Shown piece by piece: positions 26,320-64,000 of a DNA stretch of 64,000 nucleotides. How positions within the stretch are numbered: the stretch's first letter is position 1; each line of letters opens with the position of its first letter. This DNA comes from Lepidodermella squamata (lineage: Eukaryota; Animalia; Gastrotricha). The stretch is taken from positions 1-64,000 of the forward strand of contig JBLDXI010000058.1 of assembly GCA_047495785.1 (NCBI GenBank). The letters are read 5' to 3'. The notes under the pieces are model-generated. The model was not told the DNA's origin and did no database searches. It worked only from the letters and a program-made list of their open reading frames with translations. Both the position numbers and the translations under genes were made by a program.

Positions 26320-26760
26320 TGGAAAAAAGCTGTAGTGGAAATGATACCTAAGGACGGTAAAGATGGGAGGACTGCGAAAGGGTACCGACCAATTTCTCTA
26401 CTCAGTTCAATCGGGAAAATAATGGAGCGCCAAGTGGCAAGGCGAGCAGTCCTAGAATAACTCCGGGAGCGAAAGATCCTTCCGCCAACTCAATCGGCAT
26501 TCCAAAACAGGCACTCGGTCGAAGACCATCCCTTCCGTATCGCACAAATGGCTGCTCTAGGCATGATTGAAGGCGAAGAAATATTTGTGAGCGCCATATA
26601 CATCGAGGGCGCGTTCGATAGAATTTGGCAAAGAGCTGTGCTATACAAAATGATAAATTTCAACTTCCCCGACATCGCGACGGCCTGGGTTGCGGATTTC
26701 TTGAGCGACCGTGAATACACATGCAGGATCGGAGCTGACCACAGCTCGGTCAGGATAACC
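26320..26760 (+). mobile_element. Jockey-like LINE reverse transcriptase fragment
   Basis: WKKAVVEMIPKDGKD..KGYRPISLLSSIGKIMER..QSAFQNRHSVEDH..IEGAFDRIW; paralogous to 30145-31560. Confidence 0.88.
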
Positions 26761-26763
26761 GAG

Positions 26764-27035
26764 TGTTGTTCTTATAACGCGCTCGGCTCATTAAATCAGT
26801 AACCTTTCAGCTCTGTATCTCTTAGTAAATTGGTTTCGCGTTGACCATATACGCGCTGCCGCTCATTAAATCAGTCTGTTCAATATATAATAATATAAGT
26901 TCTTCTCTGGCCTTCTGCCGCACTATAACAAACATACTTTAAGAGCATTATTGCTAACTACTGGTGGTATTCAAAGCTAAAGAGTTATCCTTTCGATCTT
27001 TTTAAAGCTAGTTTCATCTAGCTTAAAAATCAACA
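26764..27035. mobile_element. Candidate solo LTR (TGTTG...CAACA, 272 bp)
   Basis: Terminal inverted pentamers and an internal TATATAA; begins where the LINE fragment ends; no matching TSD found. Confidence 0.3.
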
Positions 27036-27173: not shown

Positions 27174-28400
27174 GTGTTTGCGCCCAATCATCTCCATTGG
27201 GAAAGGCAACAGGAAAGGCACTTTCTTATTTCTACCTTGTCTACTTGGATGGCTCAACCTCGGCCTATGGGCCGGAACCGTCCGGGCGGATCTTTTAACG
27301 GTAATGAAAGCTCTTTCCGAAGCCAGTATACCGTCCAGCAAATGGGTGCTGGGGTCGCAGAAGGCTTCGACGTGAGGGTAAACGAACTGAAATCGCAAAT
27401 TCACAATTTGCAACGGAATTTCGAGATTCAGTTCAACTCGCTTCTCGCCGCTTTAACAACGATCGACCATCAAGATCTGTCGCTCCAACGAAAGCAACAA
27501 ACTAAGAGCGAACAGGGGCAACAGCGAGCCTCTCAGGTAGAAACCTCTAATCGCTTTCACTTGCTTGATTCGGAGGACATCAACGATTCCGATTTCGAAA
27601 ATTCTCACACCAAAAATCAAAAAAACCAAAAAAAAACCAAAATCAAAAAATTCAAAAAATTCTACTGACCAACAGCGAGAAAATTCTCGTGGTCAACAAA
27701 ATCAACGACCAAATTTTGACTCGTAAGATGGAAATTATGATCCAGAATCCTGTAAAAAATGATGAACTTCAATTTTCCCGATATAGCGACAGCCTGGGTT
27801 GCTGACTTCCTGAGCGACCGTGAATACACATGCAGAATCGGCTCGGTCAGAAAGATCACTGGTGGGGTGCCACAAGGAACATTGCGCATTGCCCTCAGGC
27901 TACCTTCAGGCCACACCACGGAAGACACGTACGAGTAACGGCCAAAGCTCCCAGTAGCTACCCTCAACTTCGCCTCAACTTGGACGCAATGAAAATTGAA
28001 CTATTGTAATATGTCGCCGCCAAATATTAATACAATTTATTGCCGCTTATTATTGCCGCTAATAACACCGTTAAATGATGTCGTTTATTGTTACCGGCGG
28101 GCCACGGGCCGCGTGCTATCGGATAAATATAGTTTGGGAAGAACAAGGAATAAACAGAATAAAGATTTCGGTTTTAAAACAAACTTGGTTTTTGTGAGTA
28201 ATTTACAACTATTCAAGGAAGAGATGTGCGAGAACTTCGACACTACCGATCTGACCTCCATAGAGAAAATATATGCAGCCATCGAAAACCTCGAGTCAAT
28301 AGTAAATAAAGCGACGACTAAGCTTGAAGGAGTAGCAGCTATTAAAATCGTATCGGTATACTGCCCGCCAACAACTCTAACCTCAAACTTCTGTCACAAG
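27174..28400 (+). mobile_element. Scrambled LINE fragments (ORF1-like coiled coil with SNRF..L motif, RT piece at 27750-27878, endonuclease-region pieces)
   Basis: ORF 27174-27668 (VNELKSQIHNLQ..ETSNRFHLLDSED); NFNFPDIATAWVADFLSDREYTCRI..GGVPQG; IKIVSVYCPP. Confidence 0.65.
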
Positions 28401-30144: not shown

Positions 30145-31560
30145 TCAACTGGTTTGCGCATTAGGATAGCACTTTCTTGTCCTACCAGGTTGTTGTATTG
30201 CAACGAACGGTTCAACCAGTTTGTTGCAAGCCTGGTTGCATGATCTCGGATCGACTCGATGCCCTGCCCTTTTACGAAGGTCCTCGGTGTTGTGCCAAGG
30301 CGGAAGTCGCAGGACAATTCTTAGCGCCTGGTTTTGAACGACCTCGAGTTTGTGCCAGAGCGAGCTGTCGATGCCGACCCAAGCAGGATAGCCGAATATC
30401 AACACACTTCTTATGTATGCCTTGTATACTGTAACAGCCGCTTCTTTCTTAAGGCCGAAACTTCTGCGACAGACGGCGTGAAGTGCTACGATTCGCTGTG
30501 CCGCCTTTGCGATAGCCAAGTCGATTTGCTTTTTGAATAGCAGCTTCGAGTCAATTGTCACGCCCAAGTATTTCACCTCGTTGTGCCACTTCAACAAGGT
30601 GTTATCCAACTTAATGGCTGACTCGGGCGGTTTTGACTTATTCGAAATTCGAATCGCTTGGCTCTTCCCAGCGTTTGCTTTCAGGCGCCATTTTTTGAAG
30701 TATGTCGAGACTTTCGACATACCGTTGTTAAGATTGGCGCGGGCAACCTCGCCTTTTTTATTTTTCGAGATTAAAGCCACGTCGTCGGCGAAAAGGCAGT
30801 TGGCTACTGATTTCGGTAGATCCCGCGAGAGGTCGGCCGTGTACAGGACGTACAGTATCGGGCTCAGCGGTGAACCTTGCGGAACACCGCCGGTGATTTG
30901 CCGTACGCTGCTGTGGTCGTTGCCTACCCGACAGCTGAATTCGCGATCCGTGAGAAAATCCGCAATCCACGCCGTTGCGATGTCAGGGAAGCCGAAATTG
31001 AGTAGTTTGTAAATTACTGCTCGTTGCCAGATGCGGTCGAAGGCACCTTCGATATCGAGGCGCGAAACGTAGGTTTCCTCATGGTTCAACAAACCGGTGA
31101 CAGCAAGTTGAACGATGCGGTATGGATGGTCTTCGACCGAATGACGGTTCTGAAAGGCTGACTGGGTTAGCGGCATGATTTTTCGCTCACGCATTTCCTC
31201 AAGCACCCGCCTTGCGACTAGGCGCTCAAGTATTTTTCCGATGCAGTTGAGGAGGCTGATCGGGCGGTAGCCCTTTGGCGTTCGCCAGTCCTTCCCTTCT
31301 TTCGGTATTAGTACGACGATGGCCTTCTTCCACCTGGCAGGCATATAGCGTACCGCAGGCAGGCGTTGAAGATATCAGTTGCTTTATCCCAGAAGGCATC
31401 AGGTGCTCTTTTCAGAACCGCATTAAGAATGCCGTCTTCGCCTGGCGCCGTGCTTTTCAGCTTCTTAACGATTGCTGTGACCTCGCCAGGTTTCACGTTC
31501 CAGCGGCCGGACCTATCACGCCTTGGGGTAACGGGACGTCCGATTTCGTCGATGACAATT
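30145..31560 (-). mobile_element. 5'-truncated Jockey-like non-LTR retrotransposon, RT region (399-aa ORF plus a frameshifted upstream part)
   Basis: APGEDGI, WKKAIVVLIPKEGK, YRPISLL, DIEGAFD, GVPQGSPLSP, LFADD, KYLGVTID motifs. Confidence 0.95.
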
Positions 31561-36310: not shown

Positions 36311-36940
36311 TCAGCGGTCGCCTGTCGCACGACGTGCTAGCACGAATGCACTTGTTCTGGAGGACGTGAAGACAGAGCAACTGTTGCTTTGCGGCGGGCA
36401 AAAAACGACGCAGCCGAAAAAGGCGATCGAGCGGACGAGACGACGAGGCGATCCCAGGGCGCCGAACGATGGTGTGGTAACAGGAAAGACTTTGCCCGCA
36501 GCGGCACAGGGCGCGGTCCATGTTGGGCTTCTCCGATAGCTTCGCGTCTAAGTGAATGCCTAAGACGCGCAAAACTTCGACCTGAGGGATAGCGGAGCTG
36601 TTAAGCGCCAAATGCGGGGCTGGTGGTTGCTGCCCGAAAGCGAGCGCTTCACTTTTAGAGGCGCTGAACTGCTGTCGCCAGAGCCTGGCCCACGAAGACA
36701 CACGGTCGATTTCCTCCTGCACCCGCGACTCAGCCTCCGAAAAGGAATCACGGGTACCGAGGACGGTCAAATCGTCAGCGCGATAAGCATCAAGGACGCT
36801 ACCAAGAGCGCCGGGGCGTCGAGAAGAATGATGTAGAGCAAATGGGACAGCGGCGAGCCCTGCGGCACTCCGCAATTAACCACAAAGGAGCGACTAAGGA
36901 AACTGGCTACGCGTGCCTGCATGTGAGGTGCCACACTGCA
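36311..36940 (-). mobile_element. Second LINE RT fragment (I/Jockey group)
   Basis: GVPQGSPLS, ADDLTV, QEEIDRVSSWARLW..FSASKS, LRVLGIHLD. Confidence 0.82.
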
Positions 36941-36949
36941 TAATGAGAC

Positions 36950-38330
36950 TGAGGCATTTCGCGGCCGTACACCCATCATGTAGGGTGTTTTGTCCGTCGC
37001 CTCGTGCGGCGTCGACCTGTAGGCGCTGAGCGCCCGGGAGATGTTGTCATCCCAGTCCTTGCGCCACTTGACCGCCATTGTCGCCAAAATGTCACCGATT
37101 GTGCGGTTGAAGCGCTCGCACACGCCGTTCGCCCAAAGCGTGTATGCTGACGTACGTGCTTTTTTGATCGCGTACGCGTCACACAGTTTGTCGATCAGGT
37201 CCGATTCGAACTCGGCCCCTCGAGCCGACAACAACCAACAACCTCTCGCACACAGCATGATCGGCGAAGAACTTCTTCAAGCAGCTGGCAACCGTTGCCG
37301 CTGTTCGATTACGTGTGGGATAGGTTTGCGCCCACTTCGTGTAGTGATCAACCACCGTGATGTCCACCTGTTGCCACGCCGTGTTCGGGGTTTGGGGTAG
37401 CGGTCCAACGAGCGGGCCTTTCGTCGCTACCGTACTCGCCTTCCTGAGTTGGCATGTCGCGCAACCTTGGCAGTGCGTTTTGACGTCAGACAACATTACT
37501 GGCCACCAAAACCGATCACGAATCCGTCTGATAGCCTTGCGGTATCCGAGGTGTCCACCGTTGGGTGAGCCGTGCGAATGGTACACAATCAGAGGGCGCA
37601 ATCTCTTTGGTACACTAATGGCCAACTCACCCGTTGCCAACTTTTTGCACCAGATACATTCCCTTGGAGCATCTTCAACCAAGTCGCTGTCCTCTCGGGC
37701 CACCAGAAGCGTGCGCCATTCGCCGCTTTCTACCTTTTGACCACTCGTCTTCGCCCGTATCACGGGTCCGATTTCGTCGTCAACTGCTCACTCTGACAGC
37801 TCAGCAGTTCTTTCATGTCGGTTTGGAAGCATTCCTTGGAAATCATGTTGCAACAACCGTTGCTTTCTTCTTCAAGCTTTTCCGGGAAACATCTGGTAAG
37901 GGCATCGGCATATTGCTTCGTGCCAGGTACGTAGAGTGCGTCGAATTTGAACTACTGAAGTTCGTGTATCCACCCCCAAAGTTTCGGGGGAGGATCCTTG
38001 ATCGACATCAGCCAGTTGAGCGGCTGATGATCTAATCGCAGTTCGAAGCGATCATGAAAATAGACCTTGAATCTCTTCGTGACCGGCCAATAGTTAGCCA
38101 ATGCTTCACGATGAATCTTCGAATACCGGCGTTCGGCTTTGCCGAGAGACCGACTCGACGATGAGATCAACCTTAGCTTTCCCTCCTGCTCCTGACACAA
38201 TAGAGCGACGATGCCAATATTTCAAGCGTCCCTGTAAACGACAAACGGTTTGTTGAGATCTGGAACGCCCAGAACTGGAGCTTTCAGAAACGAATTATTG
38301 AACGCATTCACCCTTTCTCCTGTCCATGCA
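36950..38330 (-). mobile_element. Ty3/Gypsy pol fragment (RNase H + integrase)
   Basis: SRSLGKAERRYSKIHREALA..DHQPL (RNase H); H..GHLG..FWWP..CATCQ (zinc finger); VDHYTKW, GAEFES, NGVCERFNRT (integrase core). Confidence 0.92.
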
Positions 38331-39470: not shown

Positions 39471-39811
39471 ATTCCCAAGATGAAAGTCTACTTTCGCAAA
39501 ACTTTTCCTTTTGATTTGCGCGAGCCTTTTCCCTCTTTTTCCACAACTTTTTTCCCTAAAACAATTCTTGGTAGTAAAATAACATACTGGCAACGAGACA
39601 AATCTCGTTTCCTCTTGTAATTAACGTTTGGCTCGCTGTTATTCATTAATTTTTCTTCTTTTAATTTTAACCCCCTATCTTCTAAATTAACAGGCTAGGG
39701 TCTAACCCAGCCTGTCTCCCATCTGACGATGTCGGAAGAGTAAGGCGATTCATCCGACTCGGACGCTTTATTGTTCCAAGATGAGGGCGAAATGATCAAA
39801 ATAATTGATGC

Positions 39812-40609
39812 ATGGGAGGTAAGAAGAAGCATGGGAGCTTGGGAGGTAAGAAGAAGCAGTCAATTGCCACTGTTGTACGAAAGCTGGAAGTCAGCCAATC
39901 TGCCCGTCTGGCAGCAATCGAGCTCTCCGACGAGATGCCGGCCCCACAGAAACGAAACAGACAGGCTGATACTGCTGATAAAGAGGTCAACAAATTTCGG
40001 AAAGAAAAACGTCGGCAAAGGATCGGATATGCTGCTCAACGTCTGGTTAAGGAATTTTCCGCGAGGTTCGAAATTACTTACCAGCAAACATCCAAGATTA
40101 GCTCAGCAACGGAATCCTCGCCTCCTAAACGTCCCATTTGGGACCTTGGAAGTGATGGGGGTGTGAACGAGGCCTACAACGACATCCTCAGCTCTTCAAC
40201 TTCCGATTCAGAAGAATCCGACTTCTCTGAGTCTGATGACATTTTGGGATGTGTTTTCACGCCTGGGACCTCGACTGGTCCAATAGCTGGATCCTCGACT
40301 GGTCCAATGGCTAGAACCTCGGCTGGTCCAACGGCTGGGACATCGGCTGGTCCAACGGCTGGGACATCGACTGGTCCAATAGCTGGATCCTCGACTGGTC
40401 CAATGGCTAGAACCTCGGCTGGTCCAACGGCTGGGACATCGACTGGTCCAATGGCTGGGACATCGACTGGTCCAACGGCTGGAACCTCGACTGGTCCAAC
40501 GGCTGGAACCTCGACTGGTCCAACGGCAGGAACCTCGACTGGTCCAACGGCTGGGACTTCGGAAAGACCTGCGCGTGGAACTGGAAATGACCAAAGCGGT
40601 CGTTACTGA
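39812..40609 (+). CDS. Low-complexity ORF with an 8-aa tandem repeat, probably part of a decayed TE-borne gene extending to ~42065
   Basis: 265-aa ORF: basic N-terminus, acidic S/D/E tract, then 12 copies of (T/A)GP(T/M/I)A(G/R)(T/S)S. Confidence 0.4.
   Translation: MGGKKKHGSLGGKKKQSIATVVRKLEVSQSARLAAIELSDEMPAPQKRNRQADTADKEVNKFRKEKRRQRIGYAAQRLVKEFSARFEITYQQTSKISSATESSPPKRPIWDLGSDGGVNEAYNDILSSSTSDSEESDFSESDDILGCVFTPGTSTGPIAGSSTGPMARTSAGPTAGTSAGPTAGTSTGPIAGSSTGPMARTSAGPTAGTSTGPMAGTSTGPTAGTSTGPTAGTSTGPTAGTSTGPTAGTSERPARGTGNDQSGRY
40265..40560 (+). repeat. 24-bp coding minisatellite, ~12 units
   Basis: GGRACMTCGRCTGGTCCAAYRGCT-type units with a higher-order duplication of the first units. Confidence 0.95.
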
Positions 40610-42439
40610 AACAATGTTGTCAGGTGGCGTATATTTGCTGCAAAACGGAGGGAGTGTTAAAATTTTCTCAACCGATAAAGAAGAGTTCTATCACGTAACC
40701 AGCAACACGTGTGCAGTGGACAGCCTGATTAACGCCGTGTCCCATAGGGAAATGGAGCGTTTCTGTGGGTCCGAGCTGGTGGACTATCTGAGGAATCTAA
40801 AGGACGCGGCTTCTAGTGAAAACGGCGAGAGGATGGCTCAGTTAGCAAGAAGGCTCAGAAAGCTCCCAAGGCTCCCAAGGTTCCTAAAACCATAAAAGGT
40901 AAGTCACGCAAGGGCGCTTGGACCTTCGATGATTTGGCTTCGGACGGATCGGAAGCCTAAGAAATCAGCTTCGCCTTGGGTCTCAGCGTGCTCGACCAAT
41001 TGCCTGCCTCTGACTGTGCAAGTCATGATGTTGACCTAAGAAGCACCCGACCTTTTGAACTATCATTTGCTATGGGCATGGCCGCAATCCGCCAAAGTCT
41101 CTGCCCAGGTAAATGGGTTTCTTATTTGGAAGCCATCAGCAATAAAGCAGCGACACGCTTCGAACTCCGAGCTAGGCGAGGCATTTTGATCAAAGAGCTC
41201 TACTCTGATTTCGCTGTTCGACGTGAAGATGGGGGCAGAGTGTACAGCTTCGACGACATAAGGCCCAGTCAGTTGTGCTCAGCGATCTTTGCTATTGACC
41301 GATGTGGGCTTACTAGGAAAGTTGGCAACTGCCAAAATGAATTCTGCACCTCTCCGCCTGGGACAGAATTCATTACGAATCCGTTCCTCATCATCGAGTC
41401 GGATGGGTTTGCTTTATCAATTAATTTGTTCGGATCAATTTTGAATGCCAATTAATTCGTAGCTTCCCATCTACGCGGCAGCTAGAGGAAATGTTGAGCA
41501 ACCGATTCGGTCAGACTTCAACCGATTGTCAATACGTGGAATCTAGCGGGTAAAATCAACTAAAGATTGTTAAATTAACGGCCAGGTTAAAATGTTGGGG
41601 TTGAAATTTGTTCAGATCGCCATGCCAGGGCACGAGGCTGATCAGTGTTGGCACGAAGATGGCCGAGTTTCGCCCAGCCCCACCATCATCATCGCCATTG
41701 ATGGTCTTGTAGCCCTTAGCAAATGCCTGAATCTAACGCAATTATCATTCCAGAATCTGAGGTAAATTTTTGTTAAGAAACGTAAAACCTGTAATGTAGC
41801 AGTAATATCCAGCTATGAAGTCGTCGCCGCCGTGGCTAGGCAAAGTGGCACGTCAAACTACGGCCTCCTCACGCCTGGCTTTTTCCCGTTGGATTATACC
41901 CTTGTCACAGAGGGAAAGGCGAGACGGAATTACCTGCGGCCTGAATCACCGGCCTTGAAAAAATGGCTAGGCGTTTTTCTTATTCTTGGGCGTACGCCAG
42001 ACGAACAGGAACTAGGCTGTCCGGAACCGGAACTGAATTCAGGCGACTACATATTTGACCGCTAACTATTTTTTGCGGTTTTGAATTTTTAATCTTCGCT
42101 ATTGGGTGCGTTTCTTTATTCTAGTTTTTGTGCATTTTATCAAATAAAATCGAAATAAAACAGCCATTTCATTGATCTGATGAGTTTATAAAACCAGCTG
42201 GTTTTTCCATTTCTTAAGCAGTGAATTTTAGTTTGTAAAATCAAGAGAAAAATCTAAAAATCTAAAAAATCAAGTAAAGAAAGGCAAAGAATTTTAATTT
42301 CTCAAAATAAATTGCTACAGAAATGTCAAATTTTTAATTTCATTTTCCAACAGAAAATCGCCGGGAATAAAGAAACGTGCCCATTGGTTTTCGTTGGGAT
42401 ACACTAATAACTACAGGGTATCGCTGGGTCTACATCATT

Positions 42440-44037
42440 CCATCGAACTAATAATTTCTTTCCGCGAACCATTTTTACTTAAAACGTCGGAAATATACAA
42501 AAAGGGTGAAAAATAAATTAAACCATCGGAAAGTCATTTTACTGCATTATTACATCGGAACACGAGCTTATTTCATCGGAACACGAGCTTAGGCCGTCGG
42601 AATACGCGTGACCTGGTTTGAATAAGGATAGTTTGAATAAGAACATCAAGTTATGGTACAAAGTCCACAAGTTGCTCACCGTTGTTCAGCTCGCTTTATC
42701 ACGTACCGAGGTATTCCGACGGTTTCAGTCGTTTATAAAATATATTATGCAAATTTTTCCCAGTTTTTGATGATTTGGCAGTTGGCCAAGAACGAATTGA
42801 TGCTTAGCGATCAGGCTGCCTTGTACCTCGAGTTCATCGCCTACTTCGAGCCAATTTATGTTTTTGGTCCGCTGGCTTATTGGTTTGAAGGGGCATCTGA
42901 GTTTTGCTGCACGAATAATGGTAACGAATCTTTGAACGCAAGGACCAAAGATGAAAATACCCATCGAACCGTGCATGCACTGACCGCGTTTCTTTCACTA
43001 TCGGATAACATCATTAACAGTTGGGTTGTCAACAACGTTCCTTTTGCAACAACAGCAGCTATCTCCAAACGGCTTTTCAAGGAAGGTTACGAGTTGTTTT
43101 TATCCTTCGATAACTGTTTCGAAGAAGTTGAAGAAAATTCCTGGCTGGTTTTCAAATCCGGGTGGCAAGTCAATCAGGTTGTTGCTGTAGCTCGAACCTC
43201 TGGTATTTGGAACAGCATTGCAGAGTTCGACTGCTCTCTGGACTATTGCTCCCTGATCTCAGTTGAAGGCAACAAGGTCTCCTGTACCTGTAGGGTCGGG
43301 AGTAAGAAGGTTCCCTGCATTCACTTGGTGGCGCTGAAGCATAGCCGTAATCCGGAGTTTATACCTGACGATTTCCAGTCGATCCCGCTCGTATTGATCT
43401 GGCTCATCCAGTCGACAAAGCCGTTCATGGACGCGGTCGAGCTATTTTCAACTCAGCTACCGCAACTGTAGCTATGCCTGTTCGAGGCAGGGGCCGAGGC
43501 CGACCCCGTGGGCGTGGTCGCGGAGGAGTCCAAGCTCCACCTGTGATTGAAGTGGAACCACCTGCCATCATCCGTGGTCGAGGCCGTGGGCGTGGCCAAG
43601 CTCCTAGGGTTCAACCTGTGCTTGAATCAGAGCCGCTAGGAGTTATTCGTGGTCGAGGCCGTGGGCGTGGGCAAACGGCTAAGGTTCAGCCTGTGCTTGA
43701 GGCAGAGCCAGTACATGCGATTACTCGAAGCGCTGCCCGTGGACGCGGCCAAGCTGTTATCCTACAAGAAGAGCCAACTGCTAGCATTCGGGGTCGAGGC
43801 CGTGGGCGTGGCCGAGCTAGCCGTGGTCGTGGTTGACTTTTGTACTTCAATTGATACATTCTCGTGACTCATTCTATATTTCGTGATTTAACGATGTCTT
43901 AAACCATCGGAATAGTATTTAAATAGTAAATTAAGTTAAATACGAGTTTCCGATGAATATAGAATAAAAATTATATTTTGACGGTTCCGATGGTTTAAGT
44001 AAAAATGGTTCGCGGAAAGAAATTATTAGTTCGATGG
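42440..44037 (+). mobile_element. Internally deleted Mutator-like (MULE) DNA transposon
   Basis: Near-perfect ~50-bp TIRs (CCATCGAACTAATAATTTCTTTCCGCGAACCATTTTTACTTAAA); subterminal CATCGGAA repeats; encodes TNNGNESLN and a SWIM finger CTC..PCIH. Confidence 0.85.
42653..43836 (+). pseudogene. MULE transposase C-terminal half (TNN..ES, SWIM zinc finger) with a frameshifted GRGRGRG-repeat tail
   Basis: ORFs 42653-43471 and 43474-43836; the second frame is open upstream (PVDKAVHGRGRA), indicating a frameshift join. Confidence 0.75.
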
Positions 44038-53004: not shown

Positions 53005-53790
53005 TTAGCATGCATAAATAATATAGGAAAATTACTGCCGATATCGATTTTTCATGTGCCATTTTATTTTTGCTGTGTCGCGGAGAGAAAAAAAGCGGCA
53101 AGAATGCGGAATTTCTACGGTGAAAACGTGGCATCTTACGGTGTGTTTACGGTGAATTCACGGTTAACCTGCGGTCAATTTCTGTGATTTTTAGCCTAAA
53201 TTATCCTCGAGGATAAAGATTAACAATGCCGTCAAAATTATTGCCGCGCATTCTTCCTTTTAGCTTTGGAGTGGGTTTAAGTGTGCGTTTTCCTATATAT
53301 CCGGCAGTTTTAAGGTAAACTGCGAGCAGATCAACGGTGAAACGACGGTTAATAGTTCTGCAAATTTGAGCAACTGTTCCAATAGGAAATTGAATAAGTT
53401 TTACCGTGGAAAAATAACGTTACCTGCTTTTCCCTCGTAGAATTTTAACCTGGGAGTGTGGGATTTCTTAGGTTTTTTGGACTTTTGAGGCGAACTGAAA
53501 GTAGATCACCGGTAAAACGACGGTGAAATGTTCGAATAGGAAATAAACGAAGGTAACGGCGGAATATTGATTTTCTCTAATTTCTCTTTTGAAATAACTT
53601 GTAAACTCCGTCCAAACCCGCTTCACTCTTTATTGGCTGTCGACTGATCTTACTTGTCTCGCTAGCGCATGCGCCGTGGAAAGTCACCGTGGAACTTTGA
53701 CGCGAACAATCGCTAACTTGAACGTGCAATTGCGGCAATGCATCCATATCTCGTATTATAAAGTGACGTACCCAGTCTGGCTGATCAAAA

Positions 53791-53857: not shown

Positions 53858-56710
53858 AAAACACACTCTATCGGGAAACCGGAAGGGGAGAAGAACAGGA
53901 TGCCGCTACTGCGCCCATACCCTTCAGTGCTTGGTAAAGGCTATGGTAGATTTGACACAAATCAGCTTAGCTCGAGTGGCATTCTTCCATGACTCAATAT
54001 CCAGTATTCAGATCGGCGGATGTCATGCATGGACGCCGTGTTATTAGCGGTCAATGGGTTATACGTCAGTTACCTGTGGTAAATAATCCACGTAATAATC
54101 CTTGGGATGGGCCTACTTGTAGAAAACCCTCCGCTCAAACAAAAAGCTGCAAGCACAAAATTGAGAAACCCTGCGGACAATTTCATTTTATATCGTGAAT
54201 ACGGATATCTGCCAAAACCATATCGCAAAGAGAGCAATTTATGTATGTCTCTCCGTGCGGATTCGCATGCACTGGGCATTTGCGCCGTAATAATTCGCCG
54301 ATGGGACGCGAGTGATCGGCCGAAAATTTGACACGACTGACCGACGGCAACGCGATGTGCTGCTATTGTGCTTATTAAAGAAAATGCTCGTTTGTCATTT
54401 TCTCAATGAATTCGATTGCTTTAGTTGCCTTAGTGCATTCGCCTATTGCTTATCATGTGTATAAGATGTGCGCGCCCCCCATTCTCAAACTAAAACCGTG
54501 CGCATAGAAACCATTCCGGCAAAACATTTGGCCAGTGTGCTGTAAATAAATGCCTTCTGCCTCATCGCTTGTTTGGTCTTTGATTGGCATTTTTTGGCGC
54601 TACATCGGTGGTTGATACTTCTGCAAACCCCTTTTTTCGGGATATAATTGCCTCGTTTCGATCTGGGGGTGCATTTTTCAGAAGCTCGTCCAAACATGCA
54701 ACGGCTCATGATTCTTGGTCTTACAATGGCATGCCTTTTGGTGAACAGGCCGGAGAAGCACGACAACGCTGCGTGGTGTCAATAAGCGAGCCGCGCAGCA
54801 TCTCTGCATAGCCCTTGCTTTAATGTTTAACGACTCCATTTACACTATTAGACGACTTGTTCGGGGTGATGTATGCGCTGGGCGCCCCTCAAGAGATATG
54901 CCAATTAAGGTATTTTCTTGACACCGTTAGAGCTTATTACGATGGCAAAGCTCGCGATGTCGTGCACAATCATTTAGGAAAAACTGCACACGTGCCAGAC
55001 GAGGTGTCGGCCCGAGCACGGCGAAAACGTTGGGTTCTCGCCGTACTGGGACTGTACCCGGCGGAGTTAGACGTGCACAAAAATACACTGACCTACCTAT
55101 TTTTCTCTCCGCCCCACTCGGGTTGACACTGCCCTTGCCTGTGTCCACTCTGTCCACTCTTGCGGTATTTGTTAGAATTCGATTTAGCGTAATCCGGGCA
55201 GACCCCGGCGCGGACAGGCTTCAGTCTGCTTCCCAGTCGGGCTCGATGCCCAGCGCGAACGGTCAGATTTCAGACTTCGTCGCGGTGCGTTTGCCATCAG
55301 ATCAATAATATGGCAGTTTAACAGCTGATTTTGATACAAAAATTGAATTTTTGGTAACAGAGAAGCTCCTAACAAAATGTCACCAACGAATTTTCGTAGA
55401 AACCTTACTGAAAATGTAGATCGTGAAAAAATTTACCGGAGGAATTTTGATTTCACCGTGTAAAACTCACACTATAACAGAAAATGAGCCTGAAACACCG
55501 CTATTTTGGTTGCCGCTACCGCATGGCTTTCTCTCGGAGAAATGCGAAAAATTTGCGGTGACCGTGCGGTTTTGGTGCATTTTTGGAGAAAAAAATTGCG
55601 CTAGCGCAAAAAATCCATAACGCGCAGCAGCAGTACATTTTTATAGGAGTTCGGTTTTTTATGAAACACCCTGTAGGCGTGATCGAAACAACAGCGTCGG
55701 CCATCCCGAAGCGCTCGAGGACACGGTCAATGTAAGCTTCCTGAGAGATTTTGATGCCAGCGCATGTGCTCTTTACGGAAAAAACGATGCAATGGCCTAT
55801 CAGTCAAACATCAGTCTTTCATCTCGAACTTCGTCGACAGGGCGCGCTTGACTTCGCCAATTGCTCGAGGAGTGGCGGCAATGGTGTGGTCGTCAACGTA
55901 GACACCGATGATCGCGTCTTGGTGGTAGAATACGCAAGGGTCGGCGTCAACTGGTTTCGCGCAAGAAATCGGTGAGCAACGCATTCCAACAGGCGCCAGC
56001 GTTCTTTAAACCATACACCGCGCGGCTAAGTTTCCAGACTTTGCCGTCCGGGTCTGGGAAGTTGGGTGGCGGTTTCAAGAACACCGGCTCACTCAACTCG
56101 CCAGATGGCTGAAATGGCGTCCATCTGGTGAACCACTAGATCTTCAGACGCGGCGATTGCCAGGATCGTGCGGAACGACGACATGCGCATGACAGGCGCG
56201 CAGGAGTCCTCTCGCTCGATTATTTGGCGATTTCCTTGAGCAACGAGCCTCGCCTTGAACTTAATGATCTCGCCTTTCTCGTCAAATTTGCATTTAAAAA
56301 CTCATCGGCTAACGATGAGCGGCTGACCAGGTGGAAGGAACACCGCTTCTTTGACTTTCAGCTTATCGAAGGAGGCAAGCTCATCCAGGCAAGCGAGGAA
56401 CCACTGCGTAGCGTATCTTGATGCCATAGCTTCATCGAATGTGAGTGGCTCTTCATCCGATCCCCCGCAGAGCCACGTGCCAGCGCAGGGGCTTCAAGGC
56501 GGGTACTCCAGCGAGTAGTTCGGGAATCAGGGAGCGGACTGTTAAATGCGCGCACGCTTTCGGGAATAGCCAGATTTCTCAATTCACGCGGAATGCGCAC
56601 AGGATTTCTCCACTGGATTTCTCCACTGCGGCGTAGCGGCATTTTGCGTGGACGCGGCTTCAGACGTGGTGGGAGGCGGAGCCGGCGCTGGACTCGGTTC
56701 AATTTGCACA

Positions 56711-56721
56711 GGTTATGAGCC
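56711..56721 (+). promoter_or_regulatory. Primer-binding site, half-tRNAiMet type
   Basis: CA|GGTTATGAGCC, complementary to the anticodon stem-loop of initiator tRNA-Met, like Drosophila copia GGTTATGGGCCC. Confidence 0.85.
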
Positions 56722-56784
56722 TTTAGCAAGCTTCCACTGCTTTAACTCTAAACTCAACTCTCAAGAAAGCATCTTTTTTCTTCC

Positions 56785-59700
56785 ATGAGTTCCCCGGAAA
56801 TCATAAACTCAGCCGTGCGAATCAAACGTCTATCGCAAGTCGAGGATTGGCGCTTCTGGACAATTCAATTCGAGAACCTCCTCGGCGCCCACTCCTGCCG
56901 GAAAACAATTTTCTCTGATAGCGATACTGTGACAGAACCCGATCCGAAACCGGCCCTTACGCCAGAAAACACCTACGAAAGTTGGTACAAGCGGCAATGT
57001 TTAGCAAAAACTCTTTTGTTCGAAGCTGTCGATGACCGTATTTGGAAACTACTCCTACCCGACCCCGACGTCAAAACGGCCAGACAACACTTCGACCTAG
57101 TGAAAAACCATTTCCATGCTAAAACTGCTACTCGCAAAGTTGAATTAAATCGACGCTTTTTTAATTTTAAGATGAAATCCGGTGACCTACGTACACACCT
57201 TCGCAACTACGAACAACTGGTTTTGGATATGCAGGCCATCGAAATTTCACCCACCAAAGAAGCGCTGAAGGAACAACTTTTGACAAGCCTGCCACCGAAG
57301 TACGATCATCTGGCTGCGACCTTCATCCGAGATGGCGATGATTATGCTGTTCTAATGAAGGGTCTGAAAAGTTTCGCAGATATGGGCAAGGATAGGAAGA
57401 AAGAAGATCAAGACGGAGGAGTTGCTCTCGCTGTCGGGTCTTGGCCTGGCAAGTCAAACCGCAAAGGCCAAGGCCGGCCACGCAAGACTGGTAAAGGGAA
57501 TCGGCCAAGTGGTAAGACCTCCAATAAACCTTCAGGTTGCTGGAATTGTGGCGAGCAGGGCCACATCAGGTCAAAATGTACCAAGCCGAAGCAACAGGTG
57601 AAACACGTTGCCGCTGCTGTTCAAGAGGACAGCGAAGAAATAGGATTCGTCGTAACTGAGTGTCTGCCGGAATCAATGAACGAGGCCACGTTCTTGGTCG
57701 ACTCTGGAGCAAGCAAACACATGGTATACTCGCGAGACTACATCGACGAATACGAGGCTTTCCCGGCACCGAAAACGGTAACAATCGGCGACGGCAAAAA
57801 GCTGGAAGCGGCAGGCTCCGGCGTTGTTCACCTGGTATCAAACGGCGTCCGCTTCATGCTTCAAAACGTCCTACTGGTTCAAGCTCTGGCGCTCAACCTT
57901 TTTTCGGTCAGCGCTGCTACTGGGCAAGGAAACCAGGTGGAGTTTGATGGCGCCGAGTGTAAACTGAAGCGAAATGGCACGATCGTGGCTACGGCAGCTT
58001 TGAACAAGAACGTCTACACGCTACAGTGTCACGTATGCTTACCAAATAAAGATGAATCTTGTTATTCTGCTTTCGCCTCTTTGTACACCTGGCACGAGAG
58101 ATTGGGACACTGCAATGAGCGCACCATACGTGAGATGGTTCGAACCGGTGCTGTGCAGGATCTCGATTTCAATACGAAGGACAAAATGCCGTTGTGCGAA
58201 AGTTGCATCTTAGGCAAGATGACTTACAAACCCCGACCAGCAATCAACGAAATCCGCTCGAAACGACCGCTCGAAATGACCTGGACTGACCTAATGGGAC
58301 CGATCACCCCACAATCGCACAACCACTACCGTTGGGTCATCACCTTTGTTGACGACTATTCGAGGCATACAACAGTCATGTTTCTCAAGTCGAAGGATGG
58401 CGCTTTTGACGCTCTTAAAATCTACAAAGCTCAAATGGAGTCAAAACTCAATCTTAAGATGGTTAAGTTAAGGAGCGACGGTGGTGGCGAATATGTCAGT
58501 AATGAGGCCAAAAATTGGATGCTTCATCACGGAGTAGTTCAGGAACTAACTTGCGCAGGTCAGCCGTGGTCCAACGGTAAGGTGGAACGCATGGGCAGGA
58601 CGTTGATGGATATGGCAAGAGCAATGCTGAAACTAAGCGGCCTACCAAAACAGTTCTGGGTTGAAGCTGTTCGAACCGCCGCCTACATTAGAAATCGCGT
58701 TCTCAGCAAAGCTACATTGAAAACCCCTCTTGAATTATTCATGAATATTATTCCTTCATTGAAGCATTTAAAAGTCTTTGGATGTGCTTGTTTTGTCAGA
58801 ATACCAGATTCCAAACGGCAAAAACTGGACGACAAGGCCAAACGGATGGTTTTCGTTGGTTATGCCGAAAATCGCAAGGGCTATCGTCTGTATGATCCTG
58901 AGACAAGCCGCTTCTTCGAAAGAGATAATGTTATATTCGACGAGACCGAAGTTGGGCAGCGTATGGCGATCTTACCAGCTGGTGGAGCCGCCGATATCGA
59001 GAAACCCGAGATCGACAACACCAGCGAGGCTGATGAAACGCAACCTGTCAACGATTCTGGTCTTGAGGTGGAGAATGAAATCGAGCCGCCCAAACAGCTC
59101 GACAATGCAAGACCAAAACGTGATGTCAAACCCATTTCTCGTACAGACTATCCCAAACTTGGGGTACCTCGAGTTGACACTATAAATTTCGCTCAAGATT
59201 TCCCAGAAAATAGCTTTGTTGTGCTTGCTGCTTTTGTTCAGGACGCTGAACCAATCACCTACGAGCAAGCCATGGCTGGTCCAGAAAGCAAGCAATGGGA
59301 TGAAGCGGTTGATGTCGAAATGTTGGCTCTCGAGAAAAATAATACCTATAAGATCGTGCCGCGACCTAGCAACAAGAAAGTGTTGGGTAGCCGATGGGTA
59401 TTCAAGCGGAAAACTGACAAGCACGGCAACGTCTGCAAGTACAAGGCTCGCTTCGTCGCTCAAGGTCACAAGCAGCGCCCTGGCGTACCTGGCATCAGTT
59501 ATGATTTGGACAACATCTATGCACCTGTCGCCAAGTTCACCACTGTACGGATCTTGCTAGCCTACGCAGCGATGAATGGCTACACCGCCTACCAGTACGA
59601 TGTCTCTGGCGCCTACCTGCATGGTAAAGTTTCGGAAGAAATTTACGTTGAACCTCCACCGGGTCGAAAGCCGAACGGCGATAAAGTGCTGCATTTAGTA

Positions 59701-60810
59701 CGTTCTTTGTACGGAATAAAACAGGCTGGAAAATGTTGGAATGAAACGCTGGTAACAGCTTTGAAACAAGATGGATGGTCGCAAAGTTTGGCTGACCCCT
59801 GTCTGTTCGTTAGAACCGACGGCGACCTTCTCGCGCTCATGGTAACCTACATCGACGACTTCGTCATGGTGTGCAACAACGACGACTTCCGCATGAAACT
59901 CGAGAAGGAACTTCAAATCCACTTCGATATGAAACTACTTGGCGTCATGAGTCATTTTCTTGGCATGGCCGTAGAGTTCGAGTCAGGTAAAATTTATCTA
60001 CACCAGACCGCCTACATTTTGAGCATGCTAGAAAAATATGGTTTGCAAAATTGCAACGGTCTGGCAACACCGGAAGATACCAATGTTAAGCTAAGCAATG
60101 ATGAAAGCATGGGCAGTCTGGTCGATCAAGAACTGTATCAATCAATGGTCGGCAGCTTGCTCTATGCCGCCACTTGCACGAGGCCCGACATCTCGCACGC
60201 TGTCTCAAGCGTTTGTCGATACAACTCCAAGCCCCGTACTAGTCACTTGACGGCGGCTAAACGAATCTTCCGTTACTTAAAACAAACAGCAAACCTGGCA
60301 CTAGTATATGATCGCTCAAAAACATGTAATGAAGTTTTCGGTTATTCAGATGCTGATTGGGCCGGTGATCTGGCAACGCGTCGATCAACCACTGGATATG
60401 TATTCATCGGCGCGGATGCCGCAATTTCATGGCATTCGAAACTGCAGCAAGTTCTAGCCCTGAGCACTATGGATGCCGAATATTACGCACTCAGCCAAGC
60501 CTGTCAAGAAGTGAGTTGGCTACGTCAACTGCTGAAGGACTGCTTGTTTCCTAACCTGAACAAGCCGACTCTCATTCACGTTGACAATCAAGCAGCTCTA
60601 TGTTTGGCTAACAACAGCATGACCACCAAGAGATCGAAGCACATGGACGTCAAGGTACATCACATTCGCGACCAAATTCTCGCCGGAGAAGTTCAAGTCA
60701 AGTGGTGTTCCACAAAGCTTATGGCCGCGGATATTTTCACTAAGGCGATTCCTCGTGTTCAATTTGAATATTTAGTCAAATTAATTGGATTGAAAGAAAC
60801 CAAAAATTGA
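56785..60810 (+). CDS. gag-pol: Copia Gag-Pol polyprotein (Gag, CCHC knuckle, PR, IN, RT, RNase H), 1341 aa
   Basis: CWNCGEQGHIRSKC; FLVDSGASKHM; WHERLGH..CESC; WTDLMGP, VDDYSR, LRSDGGGEY, NGKVER; YKARFVAQG, SLYGIKQAG, YIDDF; GYSDADWAGD, DNQAA, ADIFTK. Domain order PR-IN-RT-RH. Confidence 0.99.
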   Translation: MSSPEIINSAVRIKRLSQVEDWRFWTIQFENLLGAHSCRKTIFSDSDTVTEPDPKPALTPENTYESWYKRQCLAKTLLFEAVDDRIWKLLLPDPDVKTARQHFDLVKNHFHAKTATRKVELNRRFFNFKMKSGDLRTHLRNYEQLVLDMQAIEISPTKEALKEQLLTSLPPKYDHLAATFIRDGDDYAVLMKGLKSFADMGKDRKKEDQDGGVALAVGSWPGKSNRKGQGRPRKTGKGNRPSGKTSNKPSGCWNCGEQGHIRSKCTKPKQQVKHVAAAVQEDSEEIGFVVTECLPESMNEATFLVDSGASKHMVYSRDYIDEYEAFPAPKTVTIGDGKKLEAAGSGVVHLVSNGVRFMLQNVLLVQALALNLFSVSAATGQGNQVEFDGAECKLKRNGTIVATAALNKNVYTLQCHVCLPNKDESCYSAFASLYTWHERLGHCNERTIREMVRTGAVQDLDFNTKDKMPLCESCILGKMTYKPRPAINEIRSKRPLEMTWTDLMGPITPQSHNHYRWVITFVDDYSRHTTVMFLKSKDGAFDALKIYKAQMESKLNLKMVKLRSDGGGEYVSNEAKNWMLHHGVVQELTCAGQPWSNGKVERMGRTLMDMARAMLKLSGLPKQFWVEAVRTAAYIRNRVLSKATLKTPLELFMNIIPSLKHLKVFGCACFVRIPDSKRQKLDDKAKRMVFVGYAENRKGYRLYDPETSRFFERDNVIFDETEVGQRMAILPAGGAADIEKPEIDNTSEADETQPVNDSGLEVENEIEPPKQLDNARPKRDVKPISRTDYPKLGVPRVDTINFAQDFPENSFVVLAAFVQDAEPITYEQAMAGPESKQWDEAVDVEMLALEKNNTYKIVPRPSNKKVLGSRWVFKRKTDKHGNVCKYKARFVAQGHKQRPGVPGISYDLDNIYAPVAKFTTVRILLAYAAMNGYTAYQYDVSGAYLHGKVSEEIYVEPPPGRKPNGDKVLHLVRSLYGIKQAGKCWNETLVTALKQDGWSQSLADPCLFVRTDGDLLALMVTYIDDFVMVCNNDDFRMKLEKELQIHFDMKLLGVMSHFLGMAVEFESGKIYLHQTAYILSMLEKYGLQNCNGLATPEDTNVKLSNDESMGSLVDQELYQSMVGSLLYAATCTRPDISHAVSSVCRYNSKPRTSHLTAAKRIFRYLKQTANLALVYDRSKTCNEVFGYSDADWAGDLATRRSTTGYVFIGADAAISWHSKLQQVLALSTMDAEYYALSQACQEVSWLRQLLKDCLFPNLNKPTLIHVDNQAALCLANNSMTTKRSKHMDVKVHHIRDQILAGEVQVKWCSTKLMAADIFTKAIPRVQFEYLVKLIGLKETKN

Positions 60811-60852
60811 TCGACAACAACACCACAAATTTATTATTTAGACTCAACAAAA

Positions 60853-61572
60853 ATGTTTATCCTCTATATAATGGTAACGATCATCAGCGCCCCAAGCGCG
60901 GCGCCGGCGAAGGTCAGCGCTAGCACCGCCAACCCAGCGACAACAATCTTCAACCAGTACGGCGTCTTCCCACTTTTCTTCTCGCCGACGGCACCAATAA
61001 CAGTTGAATCAGCAAATTCGGTCATAATAACAAATGTCGAGAAATCTAGGACAAGGAGGGAAATAATACAATGCAAGTCCACGTTAGCTCAAAAGGTGCT
61101 TCGTCAATGTGCGGTGAAGCAGCTGGAAACACTGGTCCGTGACGAAAAAGCGACTTTAGAACTGGTCGAGTCAGCAAGCCTTATATTTTCTGGAGAGGCT
61201 GAAATCGATATAAAGATATTCAATGTGATAATAGGAATGTTCAGGGACCTCAAGGCAAGCGGTCCGAAAATCGCCATGCTTCAGCAGCACGTGGCGGAAC
61301 TGAACAACACGCATAATTCCACGAGAATACTGGTCGCCCAATTAGCCGATTTGGCAAACAACGTTGGCAAGCAGGACGACGTTTGGGTGCCCGACGATAT
61401 CACTAATTGGAACATCACTATCACGGCGATTGCGTTGGCCACCGGGTCAATATTATTACATGTGATATTTTTTATCAAGACGTGTCGGTTCGCAACAACT
61501 ACAGCTGGACCGACGCAAACTAGGTCAGCGGACAGTGCCCCTCTGGCTGGCACCGCATATAAAGACTATTAA
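60853..61572 (+). CDS. Env-like type I membrane glycoprotein, 239 aa
   Basis: Hydrophobic N-terminus (aa 1-16), RTRR furin motif (66-69), heptad repeat (140-171), sequons N151/N155/N187, TM segment (188-208), short tail; located between pol and the PPT. Confidence 0.85.
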   Translation: MFILYIMVTIISAPSAAPAKVSASTANPATTIFNQYGVFPLFFSPTAPITVESANSVIITNVEKSRTRREIIQCKSTLAQKVLRQCAVKQLETLVRDEKATLELVESASLIFSGEAEIDIKIFNVIIGMFRDLKASGPKIAMLQQHVAELNNTHNSTRILVAQLADLANNVGKQDDVWVPDDITNWNITITAIALATGSILLHVIFFIKTCRFATTTAGPTQTRSADSAPLAGTAYKDY

Positions 61573-61599
61573 TAGAAATAAGTGTAATGATAATAGTTT

Positions 61600-61610
61600 G
61601 AGTGGTGGAG
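61600..61610 (+). promoter_or_regulatory. Polypurine tract
   Basis: GAGTGGTGGAG immediately before the TG of the LTR. Confidence 0.75.
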
Positions 61611-61784
61611 TGTTGGAAATTGGAACGACTCCAACCATTATAATGATATTACACTCTAGTGCTATTGTAGTTCGTACTCATGTTCTCTGTTAGCACTACA
61701 TGAGCACGTCAATTAGGCTATATAAGTAACATTGTTATATGAATAAAGCACACGAAAAGTAACTTCTCCGACTTAAATTCTACA
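61611..61784 (+). repeat. 3' LTR of Copia B (174 bp)
   Basis: TGTTGGAAAT...AAATTCTACA, TATATAA at 61719, AATAAA at 61742; Copia A sequence resumes at 61785. Confidence 0.85.
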
Positions 61785-64000
61785 CTGGTAGCCCGGCGGA
61801 AGACTGCGCCACAGGCGGCTCAGGACGCGCTCCCACTGGACCGGTGTCCCGCGGTGGGACGTGCGTGCGTGCAGGTGGCTTCGGCGGTCGCCCTAGGAGG
61901 CGGCGCCTGAATAGTGTCACCAGTATCACGGGTTTGCCGACTTTCACCGGGCGCGGAGCGGCTGGGACCAGGCTCGGGAGGTGAGTGGCGAAGAACTCGC
62001 TGTCGTCGCGGCCGAATATGACCGGTAAACGACGGGTGCGGACTTTTCTTTCTTCGAGCAGAAGCCTGGCAGGATCGCCGGTCTTGACACAGCGGCGTGC
62101 GTCGTCGTATGCGACAGCGAACTCGTTCTCGTTGAAGGTCACAGCATGGCGAATGATTACACTTCGAGTGGCTGGATCGAATAGCCTGGACCCTTTTTGT
62201 TCCAACGAGTAGCCGACGAAACGGTAGGTCTTCGCCTTCGCGTCGAACTTAGTGCGGTACTTGTCTGCAATGTGGGCGTACGCAATGCAGCCGAACGGGC
62301 GCAGAAGCGAGACGTCAGGTGCGCGGCCGTGCAGGATTTCAAAAGGCGCCCGGAACGGAATCAGGCACCCGATTCAATGTAAAGACGGAGTAGCTGGCCG
62401 CCTCGCCCCAGAAATACTTCGCAGCGCCGGCGTGAATCATGCTCCTACGCGATAACTCGGTCACCGTACGAATGGCGCGCTCGGCCACGCCGTTTTGCTC
62501 CGGGGTATCGGCCACCGTCAGCTCGTGCTTGGTCCCACGCTCGGCCAGGTACGCCTTCGTCTCGTTCGACACTTATTAGCCACCACCGTCGGTTCGGAAA
62601 CGCGCGATATTTTTACGCTGGGAGTTCGTCACTTCAGCCTCGAAGATCTTATACTTTTCGAAGACGTCAGATTTGTGGGCTATGAGAAAAACCTATACGT
62701 GGTGAGAATAATCGTTAACCATGAGCAGAAGCCATCTCGCGCGCCACCAAGAGATTCGACTTCTACCGGGCCGGCGACGTCGGAATGTACCAGATCGAGG
62801 TCATCTTCTGACCGGTCGTGCTCGGCGGTGAGCTTCAAGCAACGAGACTGCGGCGACGGCTCTGGACGTGTTGACGCGCAGTTAGTACAAGCCCTCGTTC
62901 TGGTCAGCGACCCCAACGGCGCGCTGAGAGTCGCCCTGGAAGACGAGCGCTTTCTCGGGCCCAAAACGAAGTAAGCCAGCGATTGAGGCAGCGTAGACCC
63001 TCAGGAGATTTGTAGCCAAAGCAGGGACGAACAGGACATTCTTGATAGATACGCGAATCCGCTTCCCATCATTGACCACCGCTAGGACGGTGCCAGTCTT
63101 CGACGCGGGAATTCGGCGTCCATCACCGAGCTTAACGTAAATCTCGAGCGGCTCAATATCCGATAATGCTGAAAGATCGTTCGTCATATGCATTGTCGCC
63201 CCGGAGTCGGCCATCCAGCGCCGATCAATTGGCTCGCCAACGACAGCTTCGCGACCCAGTGTCGTTTTTACCAAGTTGGCGGACACGAATCGAATCCGCC
63301 TGGGCACTCCCCCCTCACGACCGAGAGAGTGACGGAGGTAGTGCAACTCGCGCAGTTCGTGTCGCAGGTCGCTGGGTTCTCGGTCGACGACAGCTCGAAA
63401 CGCGGTTGGACCAGAACTCGCACCTTGGTCTCCGTCGCGACGCATATGCGTGACGCATCTTCGACCAGCGCTCACACAGATCGGCCCGTTGGCCGACGCG
63501 GTTACACTTTCGACACGATATGTTTTTGTCATGGCTGTACTTTTTGCACTCTTCAATCTTGTGGCCGCGGGCGTCGCAGTACGGGCAATTGAGAATAAAA
63601 TTCATTCGGCTTGTTTTCAATTTGTTTTCAAGTTTTAATATCGTTTTACGGAGTCGCCACACTGGTGGTCAGACGTCACGGCAGCGGACAGCCACTGAAG
63701 TTTTGCCTGGTTCCGCTCAAGACGGTAGACATACCTGCAACAGCAGCACTGAGTTGAGCAGTTGATTGCTGGTCGGGGGCCGGCGAGAACACAGAGGGAG
63801 CGGGGTGAGACGGAGGGATCAGCGGCGAAGGCGCGGCAGTAGCATGGGCAAAACTGCGACCCGGCACCCCAGGCGACAACTTGCCACTGCCAGTGGCACC
63901 CGCGGCGAGCTTCTTAATTTTCGCGGCGGCGTGAGCACGGCGGGATTCCACTTCAGCAGCCTGCGCAACTTTGAACGCTGGGCAGCCGCGCCAGGTACTG

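Follow-up and report, generated by a model that had tools for sequence, protein, structure and literature searches.

The stretch of DNA analysed here (the window) comprises positions 1 to 64,000 of contig JBLDXI010000058.1 from the Lepidodermella squamata assembly GCA_047495785.1, and its positions 56711 to 61784 hold a Ty1/Copia (Pseudoviridae) retrotransposon which carries, behind pol, a second open reading frame (ORF2) for an envelope-like protein. The element starts with a primer binding site (PBS) of the common Copia GGTTATG type (56711..56721, + strand), with no 5' long terminal repeat (LTR) upstream of it. This is followed by an unbroken gag-pol of 1341 amino acids (aa) (56785..60810, +) composed of gag, a CCHC knuckle, protease, integrase, reverse transcriptase (RT) and RNase H, with Pfam domain matches to Pol_BBD (residues 303-382), rve (495-594) and RVT_2 (852-1096, E 8e-65). 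A single TGA closes pol, and 14 sense codons in the same frame lead from it to the ATG of ORF2 (60808..60852, +). ORF2 itself (60853..61572, +) encodes a predicted type I membrane glycoprotein of 239 aa, and behind it the polypurine tract (PPT; 61600..61610, +) lies immediately next to the 174 bp 3' LTR (61611..61784, +), which begins with TG, ends with CA and is the sole LTR copy in the window. The order of protease, integrase, RT and RNase H and the Copia-type RT are those of Ty1/Copia elements, as are the PBS at the 5' end of the element and the PPT before the 3' LTR. A second LTR was not found, the 3' LTR matching only itself within the 64-kb window; because there is no 5' LTR and the left end is the PBS, the element is not intact, and the copy is a defective, 5'-truncated member of a Copia lineage. 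The preliminary description of this locus had reported an uninterrupted 1341-aa Copia gag-pol and an open 239-aa frame between pol and the PPT and 3' LTR, and both were recovered at the coordinates given above, the former as one frame with the Copia domain order; its word "intact" holds for ORF2 and gag-pol and not for the element as a whole.

Pol and ORF2 share one reading frame, parted only by the lone TGA, a feature absent from the preliminary description. A stretch resembling a splice acceptor, a candidate called by eye, ends at 60841, ahead of the ORF2 ATG. Among the 81 Copia loci that were fetched (77 of which reach the end of RNase H, with 46 having at least 800 nt beyond it), the GGTTATG-type PBS motif is present in 19. 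By its motif this PBS may pair with an internal fragment of tRNA-iMet (half-tRNA priming), the primer that characterises Hemivirus; no tRNA able to pair with the PBS was found in the window or in the 20 of the 81 Copia loci checked.

The ORF2 protein is composed of a hydrophobic start (11-residue mean 2.78), a furin motif, RTRR, at residues 66-69, a loop between Cys74 and Cys86, a predicted helical hairpin at 77-170, an anchor at about 188-210 (19-residue mean 2.28 starting near 190) and a short tail, the hydrophobic start and the membrane segment both being called from hydropathy only. A further cysteine is found at 211, tryptophans at 178 and 186 and glycosylation sequons at 151, 155 and 187; together with the heptad residues, all the features that the preliminary description had named could be located in the sequence. 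In the region 136-172 one heptad register has 21 of 33 a/d cells hydrophobic, against 2-16 in the other registers. When the 801-nt interval between pol and the LTR was shuffled 5000 times by dinucleotides, the open frame of 253 codons was never matched (the longest shuffle reached 222), which rules out a chance open frame, and the remaining five frames of that interval contain 8-21 stops. A hydrophobic N-terminus, a C-terminal anchor and a furin motif occurred together in two of 20000 residue shuffles, the criteria for this count having been picked post hoc. The synonymous codon use of ORF2 is unlike that of pol, with 969 of 1000 shuffles scoring equal or better.

Relatives of ORF2 were sought by an exhaustive HMMER search of 1.84 billion proteins, which returned P0322 (E 7e-12, 30% identical), P0323 (E 3e-4) and P0324, the last of which was dropped, being a repetitive protein whose match covers 32 residues. 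P0322 is a Copia RT-RNase H (RVT_2) that reads stop-free into a hydrophobic segment (385-403) and then into the ORF2 homolog, where a spacer, the motif RAKR, a Cys pair, heptad helices and a membrane anchor follow each other. P0323, a protein of 190 aa seen as protein sequence alone, starts just ahead of its furin motif. All three pairs among ORF2, P0322 and P0323 align (single-comparison E 5e-18 to 3e-10), and invariant in the three are R66, R69, C74, C86, several residues of the next helix and the anchor. The best-kept part is residues 61-100, with 18 of 39 residues identical to P0322 and 13 of 39 to P0323, and the furin motif, the Cys pair, the heptad pattern and the anchor persist at an identity of about 24-30%. 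What precedes the furin motif, in turn, varies in sequence and in length (about 65 aa in ORF2 vs about 120 aa in P0322). Thus, of the features first noticed in ORF2, the furin motif, Cys pair, helical repeats and anchor are kept across the relatives, whereas conservation does not extend to the two tryptophans or to two of the three sequons. In P0322 (380-405) there is neither a stop nor a methionine from RNase H into the signal-like segment, so that Pol and the envelope-like protein may be made as one chain.

No further members of the family were detected: a word-based search scored none of 1678 candidates, scans of metagenome and viral contigs gave no ORF2 relative, and a profile of the three proteins found nothing more among 324 stored proteins and 5477 translated segments. 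Pfam gave no match for any of the three, A2M and NPV_P10 being below the cut-off, ORF2 had no match in PHROGs, and its PDB sequence matches were noise. Among the Atlas matches listed with a family were HA, Baculo_F, Fusion_gly and Gypsy, all envelope or fusion proteins, at scores of 0.82-0.85 which make them leads only. Run X1, which has all sampled words and may be the source of the assembly, contains among the matches listed diverged pieces that match only the RNase H end and the first half of ORF2. Because of these pieces, older relatives in X1 can be said to have carried ORF2 sequence as well. Two ORF2 differences were seen in other copies among the matches listed, one silent and one not, which is too few for a ratio of nonsynonymous to synonymous substitution rates.

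The inheritance of the gene was addressed through pol. Among 7986 scored candidates the closest relative of the window pol has 47% identity, and the P0322 pol 49%. Trees of RT-RNase H (381 columns; about 55 of the 120 matches listed, named or best-scoring, together with 14 loci, and no named Hemivirus, GalEa or Sirevirus references) placed the window pol and the P0322 pol as sisters with support of 100/99, under both LG+G4 (72 rows) and LG+C20 (30 of those rows), although both tips are fairly long. In a first approximate tree lacking P0322, the window pol had formed a long branch of its own next to pseudoscorpion elements, weakly supported, a placement which the later trees overturned. In the sister clade, the nearest lineage checked, locus L001 has the same PBS type and its pol stop leads directly into PPT and LTR, with no ORF2. 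More generally, 103 of 118 pol matches stop at most 40 residues after the last RNase H motif, and none of the 46 other Copia loci with at least 800 nt downstream has a downstream ORF with two hydrophobic segments, one such segment being present in two of the 46. Since the window and P0322 pols are sisters and both carry an ORF2-like gene, the simplest reading is that ORF2 was gained once in the ancestor of the two lineages and has been kept open since. The two pols have diverged by about 1.3 substitutions per site, over which neutral cargo should not persist, and we therefore infer selection; the comparison supports ORF2 as a long-retained gene of a distinct and apparently old Copia lineage. 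That pol and ORF2 share a frame in both elements could be luck, at one in three each, and the fusion of the two in P0322 is seen in one record.

Envelope-like genes in Copia elements have been described from plants. Pseudoviruses are without an extracellular phase and a putative envelope is found only in plant Sireviruses according to the International Committee on Taxonomy of Viruses profile (PMC8515867); all the other papers are cited here from excerpts of their text. In the excerpt of PMC2829016, Sirevirus is the only genus of the Pseudoviridae with an ENV gene, the function of ENV is disputed given the plant cell wall, and in SIRE1 pol and ENV are parted by one stop codon and expressed via stop suppression. 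The window element resembles SIRE1 in that both are Ty1/Copia elements whose env-like ORF lies between pol and the 3' LTR and is parted from pol by one stop, a likeness of position only. Sireviruses have multiple AGGGGGAG copies at the PPT and long LTRs (PMC2829016, excerpt), whereas the window element has no such octamer and an LTR of 174 bp; their hosts are plants, whereas the window element has a GGTTATG-type PBS and a likely animal host. Membership in Sirevirus was rejected on host, PPT octamers and LTR length, and because the element lacks these features ORF2 was likely gained independently of Sirevirus. No Sirevirus ENV was among the HMMER matches to ORF2, no direct comparison of ORF2 with ENV having been made. 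The independent envelope capture by an animal Copia that the preliminary description proposed is thus retained as a likely separate gain; a viral origin of the protein is hypothetical, no donor having been found in the databases searched.

Among animal elements, ORF3 of the rotifer retrotransposons Vesta4 and Vesta6c is similar in that it encodes 210-230 aa behind pol of an LTR element, with transmembrane segments, cysteines, the motif RXXR and a coiled coil; one Vesta ORF3 is weakly gp41-like, its role being putative (PMC5408684, excerpt). By description, which is the level of this comparison, Vesta differs in its PR-RT-RH-IN (gypsy-type) order and, for Vesta4, in two transmembrane segments which precede the RXXR and coiled coil (PMC5408684). 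The F- and gB-type Env proteins of Errantivirus and BEL/Pao elements are likewise encoded by a third ORF behind pol in invertebrate LTR elements and have a signal peptide, a furin site and a transmembrane anchor, but differ in their multi-domain ectodomains, which have a fusion peptide or loops, and in that viral relatives can be recognised (PMC13524379, excerpt), whereas ORF2 has 239 aa and lies in a Copia element. An F- or gB-type identity was rejected, since none of the three proteins has a Pfam match and no Atlas score reaches 0.9. The best precedent for the role proposed below is sORF2 of the Drosophila MDG1 group, a small FAST-like membrane protein that passes an LTR element lacking a classical Env from soma to germline (PMC11952523, excerpt). 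As described there, sORF2 is much shorter, is often myristoylated, has a basic patch in its tail and belongs to Metaviridae, whereas ORF2 has a predicted signal peptide and a furin motif; with 239 aa, an MF start and an ectodomain of about 140-170 aa, ORF2 was rejected as a FAST-like protein. Drosophila copia and other Hemivirus elements have a single gag-pol frame, as here, but no third ORF (PMC8515867); the PBS of the window element is of the type associated with half-tRNA priming.

Class I viral fusion proteins have a signal peptide, a single C-terminal anchor and a furin-type motif ahead of the fusion subunit, a hydrophobic fusion peptide or loop near the new N-terminus and two heptad helices in a hairpin. 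An R-x-K/R-R motif is present in all three aligned proteins (as a motif, with cleavage predicted), as is the anchor, and a hydrophobic start is found in both proteins which have an N-terminus, the latter two features being judged by hydropathy. A structure model of OR​F2 built on the three-row alignment predicts a helix at 77-131, a turn, a second helix at 136-170 and an anchor helix. On this basis our preferred reading, to which we assign a probability of about 0.5, is that ORF2 encodes a small, furin-cleaved cell-surface glycoprotein that helps Copia particles to pass between cells. The protein would be made from the pol frame by read-through of the TGA or from a spliced RNA, and the ATG of ORF2 together with the acceptor-like stretch ahead of it would also permit splicing or re-initiation. 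In P0322, where no methionine lies between RNase H and the hydrophobic segment, the product would be an extension of Pol or come from a spliced RNA, and a polyprotein would probably be cut at the internal signal sequence. Having entered the secretory pathway, ORF2 would be cut after residue 69, shedding the variable N-terminal piece and leaving a membrane-anchored subunit of about 170 aa in which an amphipathic tip closed by a disulfide may be followed by a long helix, a turn, another helix and the anchor. This hairpin could act like the transmembrane subunit of a class I fusion protein and draw two membranes together, the Cys loop replacing the absent hydrophobic fusion peptide.

Several observations weigh against this reading. 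A hydrophobic, Gly-rich fusion peptide past the furin motif is absent from ORF2, P0322 and P0323 alike, so that the caution already voiced on this point in the preliminary description applies to the whole family; what follows the motif in the three proteins is a polar start, a polar or amphipathic 11-residue Cys loop and zero to one glycine among the first 40 residues. A receptor-binding domain would find little space in the N-terminal piece, which is short and weakly conserved. The family has only three known members, P0322 and P0323 each being a single record, and no viral envelope donor for ORF2 was found in Pfam, PHROGs, PDB, BFVD or IMG/VR. The structure model is weak (mean predicted local distance difference test score, pLDDT, of 45, with 57-72 over residues 91-170), it gave no Foldseek match at E 0.001, and its fold matches are generic hairpins, namely SMC, ESCRT-III and designed proteins at Z 10-11 with gp41 tied at Z 9.9, such that no family was singled out by the fold searches. 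A single-sequence AlphaFold model (pLDDT 33.5) was not used, and a three-copy complex of residues 60-215 predicted with no alignment scored 0.15, which gives no verdict. Finally, some of the ORF2 pieces in X1 are broken, by a 7-nt loss at 61128 or a 233-nt loss at 60798-61032; these pieces are remnants matching little of pol.

It is rather unlikely, in our estimate, that ORF2 is a selected accessory membrane protein which does not fuse membranes and serves instead in tethering for export, in blocking the entry of competitors or in dampening host defence. Conservation and co-inheritance with pol speak for selection and not for fusion as such, the missing fusion peptide and the generic hairpin fold suit a protein of this kind, and in P0322 the joining of the homolog in frame to RNase H could fix Pol or particles to a membrane. 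The furin motif ahead of the best-kept segment in all three proteins would, however, imply activation outside the cytosol, for which a tether has no need, and the Atlas leads, weak as they are, are to fusion proteins. In an improbable alternative, ORF2 is what is left of a larger viral envelope that was captured and then shrank, losing the surface and fusion-peptide parts, so that it can no longer work by itself. The pre-furin piece with its varying length and sequence would agree with such a loss, and the same has been suggested for the gp41-like ORF3 of Vesta6c (PMC5408684, excerpt); yet both lineages keep an open frame and both hydrophobic ends over about 1.3 substitutions per site, and no longer relative was found among the 1.84 billion proteins.

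The two remaining alternatives concern where the gene and the element come from. That ORF2 is a captured host membrane-protein gene, or a fragment of one, of no benefit to the element is very improbable: while its codon use departs from that of pol as a foreign origin would have it, and P0323 might be a host gene, the best homolog P0322 is itself part of a Copia element, which largely refutes this explanation, and no host family was matched, nor would neutral cargo stay open over such divergence. The ordinary host gene fragment that the preliminary description had allowed for is therefore very probably not what ORF2 is. Least probable of all is that the lineage is real but comes from a fungus, a protist or another contaminant. 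The named pol relatives include plants, algae, fungi and oomycetes, all of them distant, and the animal reading of the ribosomal RNA is taken from sequence motifs; against contamination stand a eukaryotic ribosomal DNA (rDNA) unit in the window with a small-subunit (SSU) gene bilaterian by those motifs, long interspersed element (LINE) relatives that are mostly animal, and X1 contigs which tie the element ends to their flanks.

Returning to a glycoprotein for passage between cells, the wider proposal that an old animal Copia clade turned retrovirus-like on its own, with a minimal fusogen in the form of a furin-activated helical hairpin whose disulfide-looped amphipathic tip replaces a fusion peptide and which is made as an extension of the Pol frame, is put forward more tentatively. 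If true, no earlier Pseudoviridae lineage in animals would have been enveloped or infectious from cell to cell, and a new fusogen family would be added; an animal Copia with a long-kept furin-type glycoprotein would mean that the gag-pol-env plan arose separately in the Copia branch. The question of whether a Copia envelope-like protein can work would become testable, in animal cells and with one small protein, and the two arrangements, fused in P0322 and parted by one stop in the window, suggest how an element with a single ORF can take up such a gene. What is new is that the env-like gene is found in a Copia lineage whose host is likely an animal, and that its protein family is unmatched to known ones, the gain of env by LTR elements being itself already known. 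A 2026 survey of envelope-carrying metazoan retrotransposons covers Ty3/gypsy and, in the excerpt, mentions Ty1/copia-like env ORFs once with no animal case named (PMC13524379). Likewise no env-bearing animal Copia is named in the excerpts of PMC2774666, PMC6563192, PMC8672886, PMC13269885 and PMC7472051, the last of which makes the general statement that envelope genes occur in elements of all three groups. Full-text searches found no env-bearing animal Copia, most subscription papers, supplements, Repbase, Dfam and GyDB being outside their scope, and a prior entry may exist.

The element is inserted into an older, decayed Copia element on the opposite strand, of which the RT side, with stops and frameshifts, is found at 56100..56710 (-) and the protease and integrase side at 61785..63601 (-). 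X1 contigs extend past the two element ends, about 30 bases into each flank, and one X1 contig links 56706 to 61783 directly, representing the empty site, with three letters assignable to either side. The depth in X1 is about 43 for the element vs about 90 for the flanks. Such a pattern suits a recent insertion, carried either in one of two alleles or in one occupied copy among several of the older element, between which contig depth cannot separate. No 5-bp target duplication is present at the element ends (56706-56711, 61783-61786). The left end may have arisen when the 5' LTR was lost later on, between a few matching letters, or by integration of a reverse-transcription intermediate before the second strand jump, since an intermediate lacking that jump would stop exactly at the PBS.

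At the other end of the window, positions 1-8149 are the edge of an rDNA array, with SSU at 1-1159 (-), a 5S gene on the opposite strand in the spacer (2962-3080), the large-subunit gene at 3313-7032, 5.8S at 7245-7397 and a last, mostly missing SSU at 7807-8149; an A run follows at 8388-8416. The linkage of 5S in the spacer could help to place the host. The SSU appears bilaterian by its sequence motifs. Pieces of LINE reverse transcriptases are found at 30148-31374 (-), 26461-26802 (+) and 27662-28000 (-), and the named relatives of the first are from a midge, a butterfly, bdelloid rotifers and a spider, with one record filed under an insect endosymbiont. Nine proteins are 51-61% identical to this LINE, the next group reaching at most 38%, so it represents a distinct family, perhaps of the host's group. 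Because the rDNA unit reads as bilaterian by those motifs and the LINE is of animal type, the host of the window is very probably an animal, in keeping with the animal genome of the preliminary description. No host gene was recognised among the 124 window ORFs of at least 85 aa. The remaining features of the window are a decayed gypsy-type element with RNase H and integrase zinc-binding pieces (36770-38221, -), open frames with no Pfam match (39809-41455, +) which include a 24-bp tandem repeat in 12.6 copies (40259-40561) that encodes Thr/Gly-rich units, and a frame resembling a transposase, with a SWIM finger, behind which another frame contains repeated RGRGRG runs (42641-43836, +), presumably a Mutator-type element. 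Two 79-nt copies, 72% alike and 175 bp apart (53280-53533), are possibly a decayed satellite.

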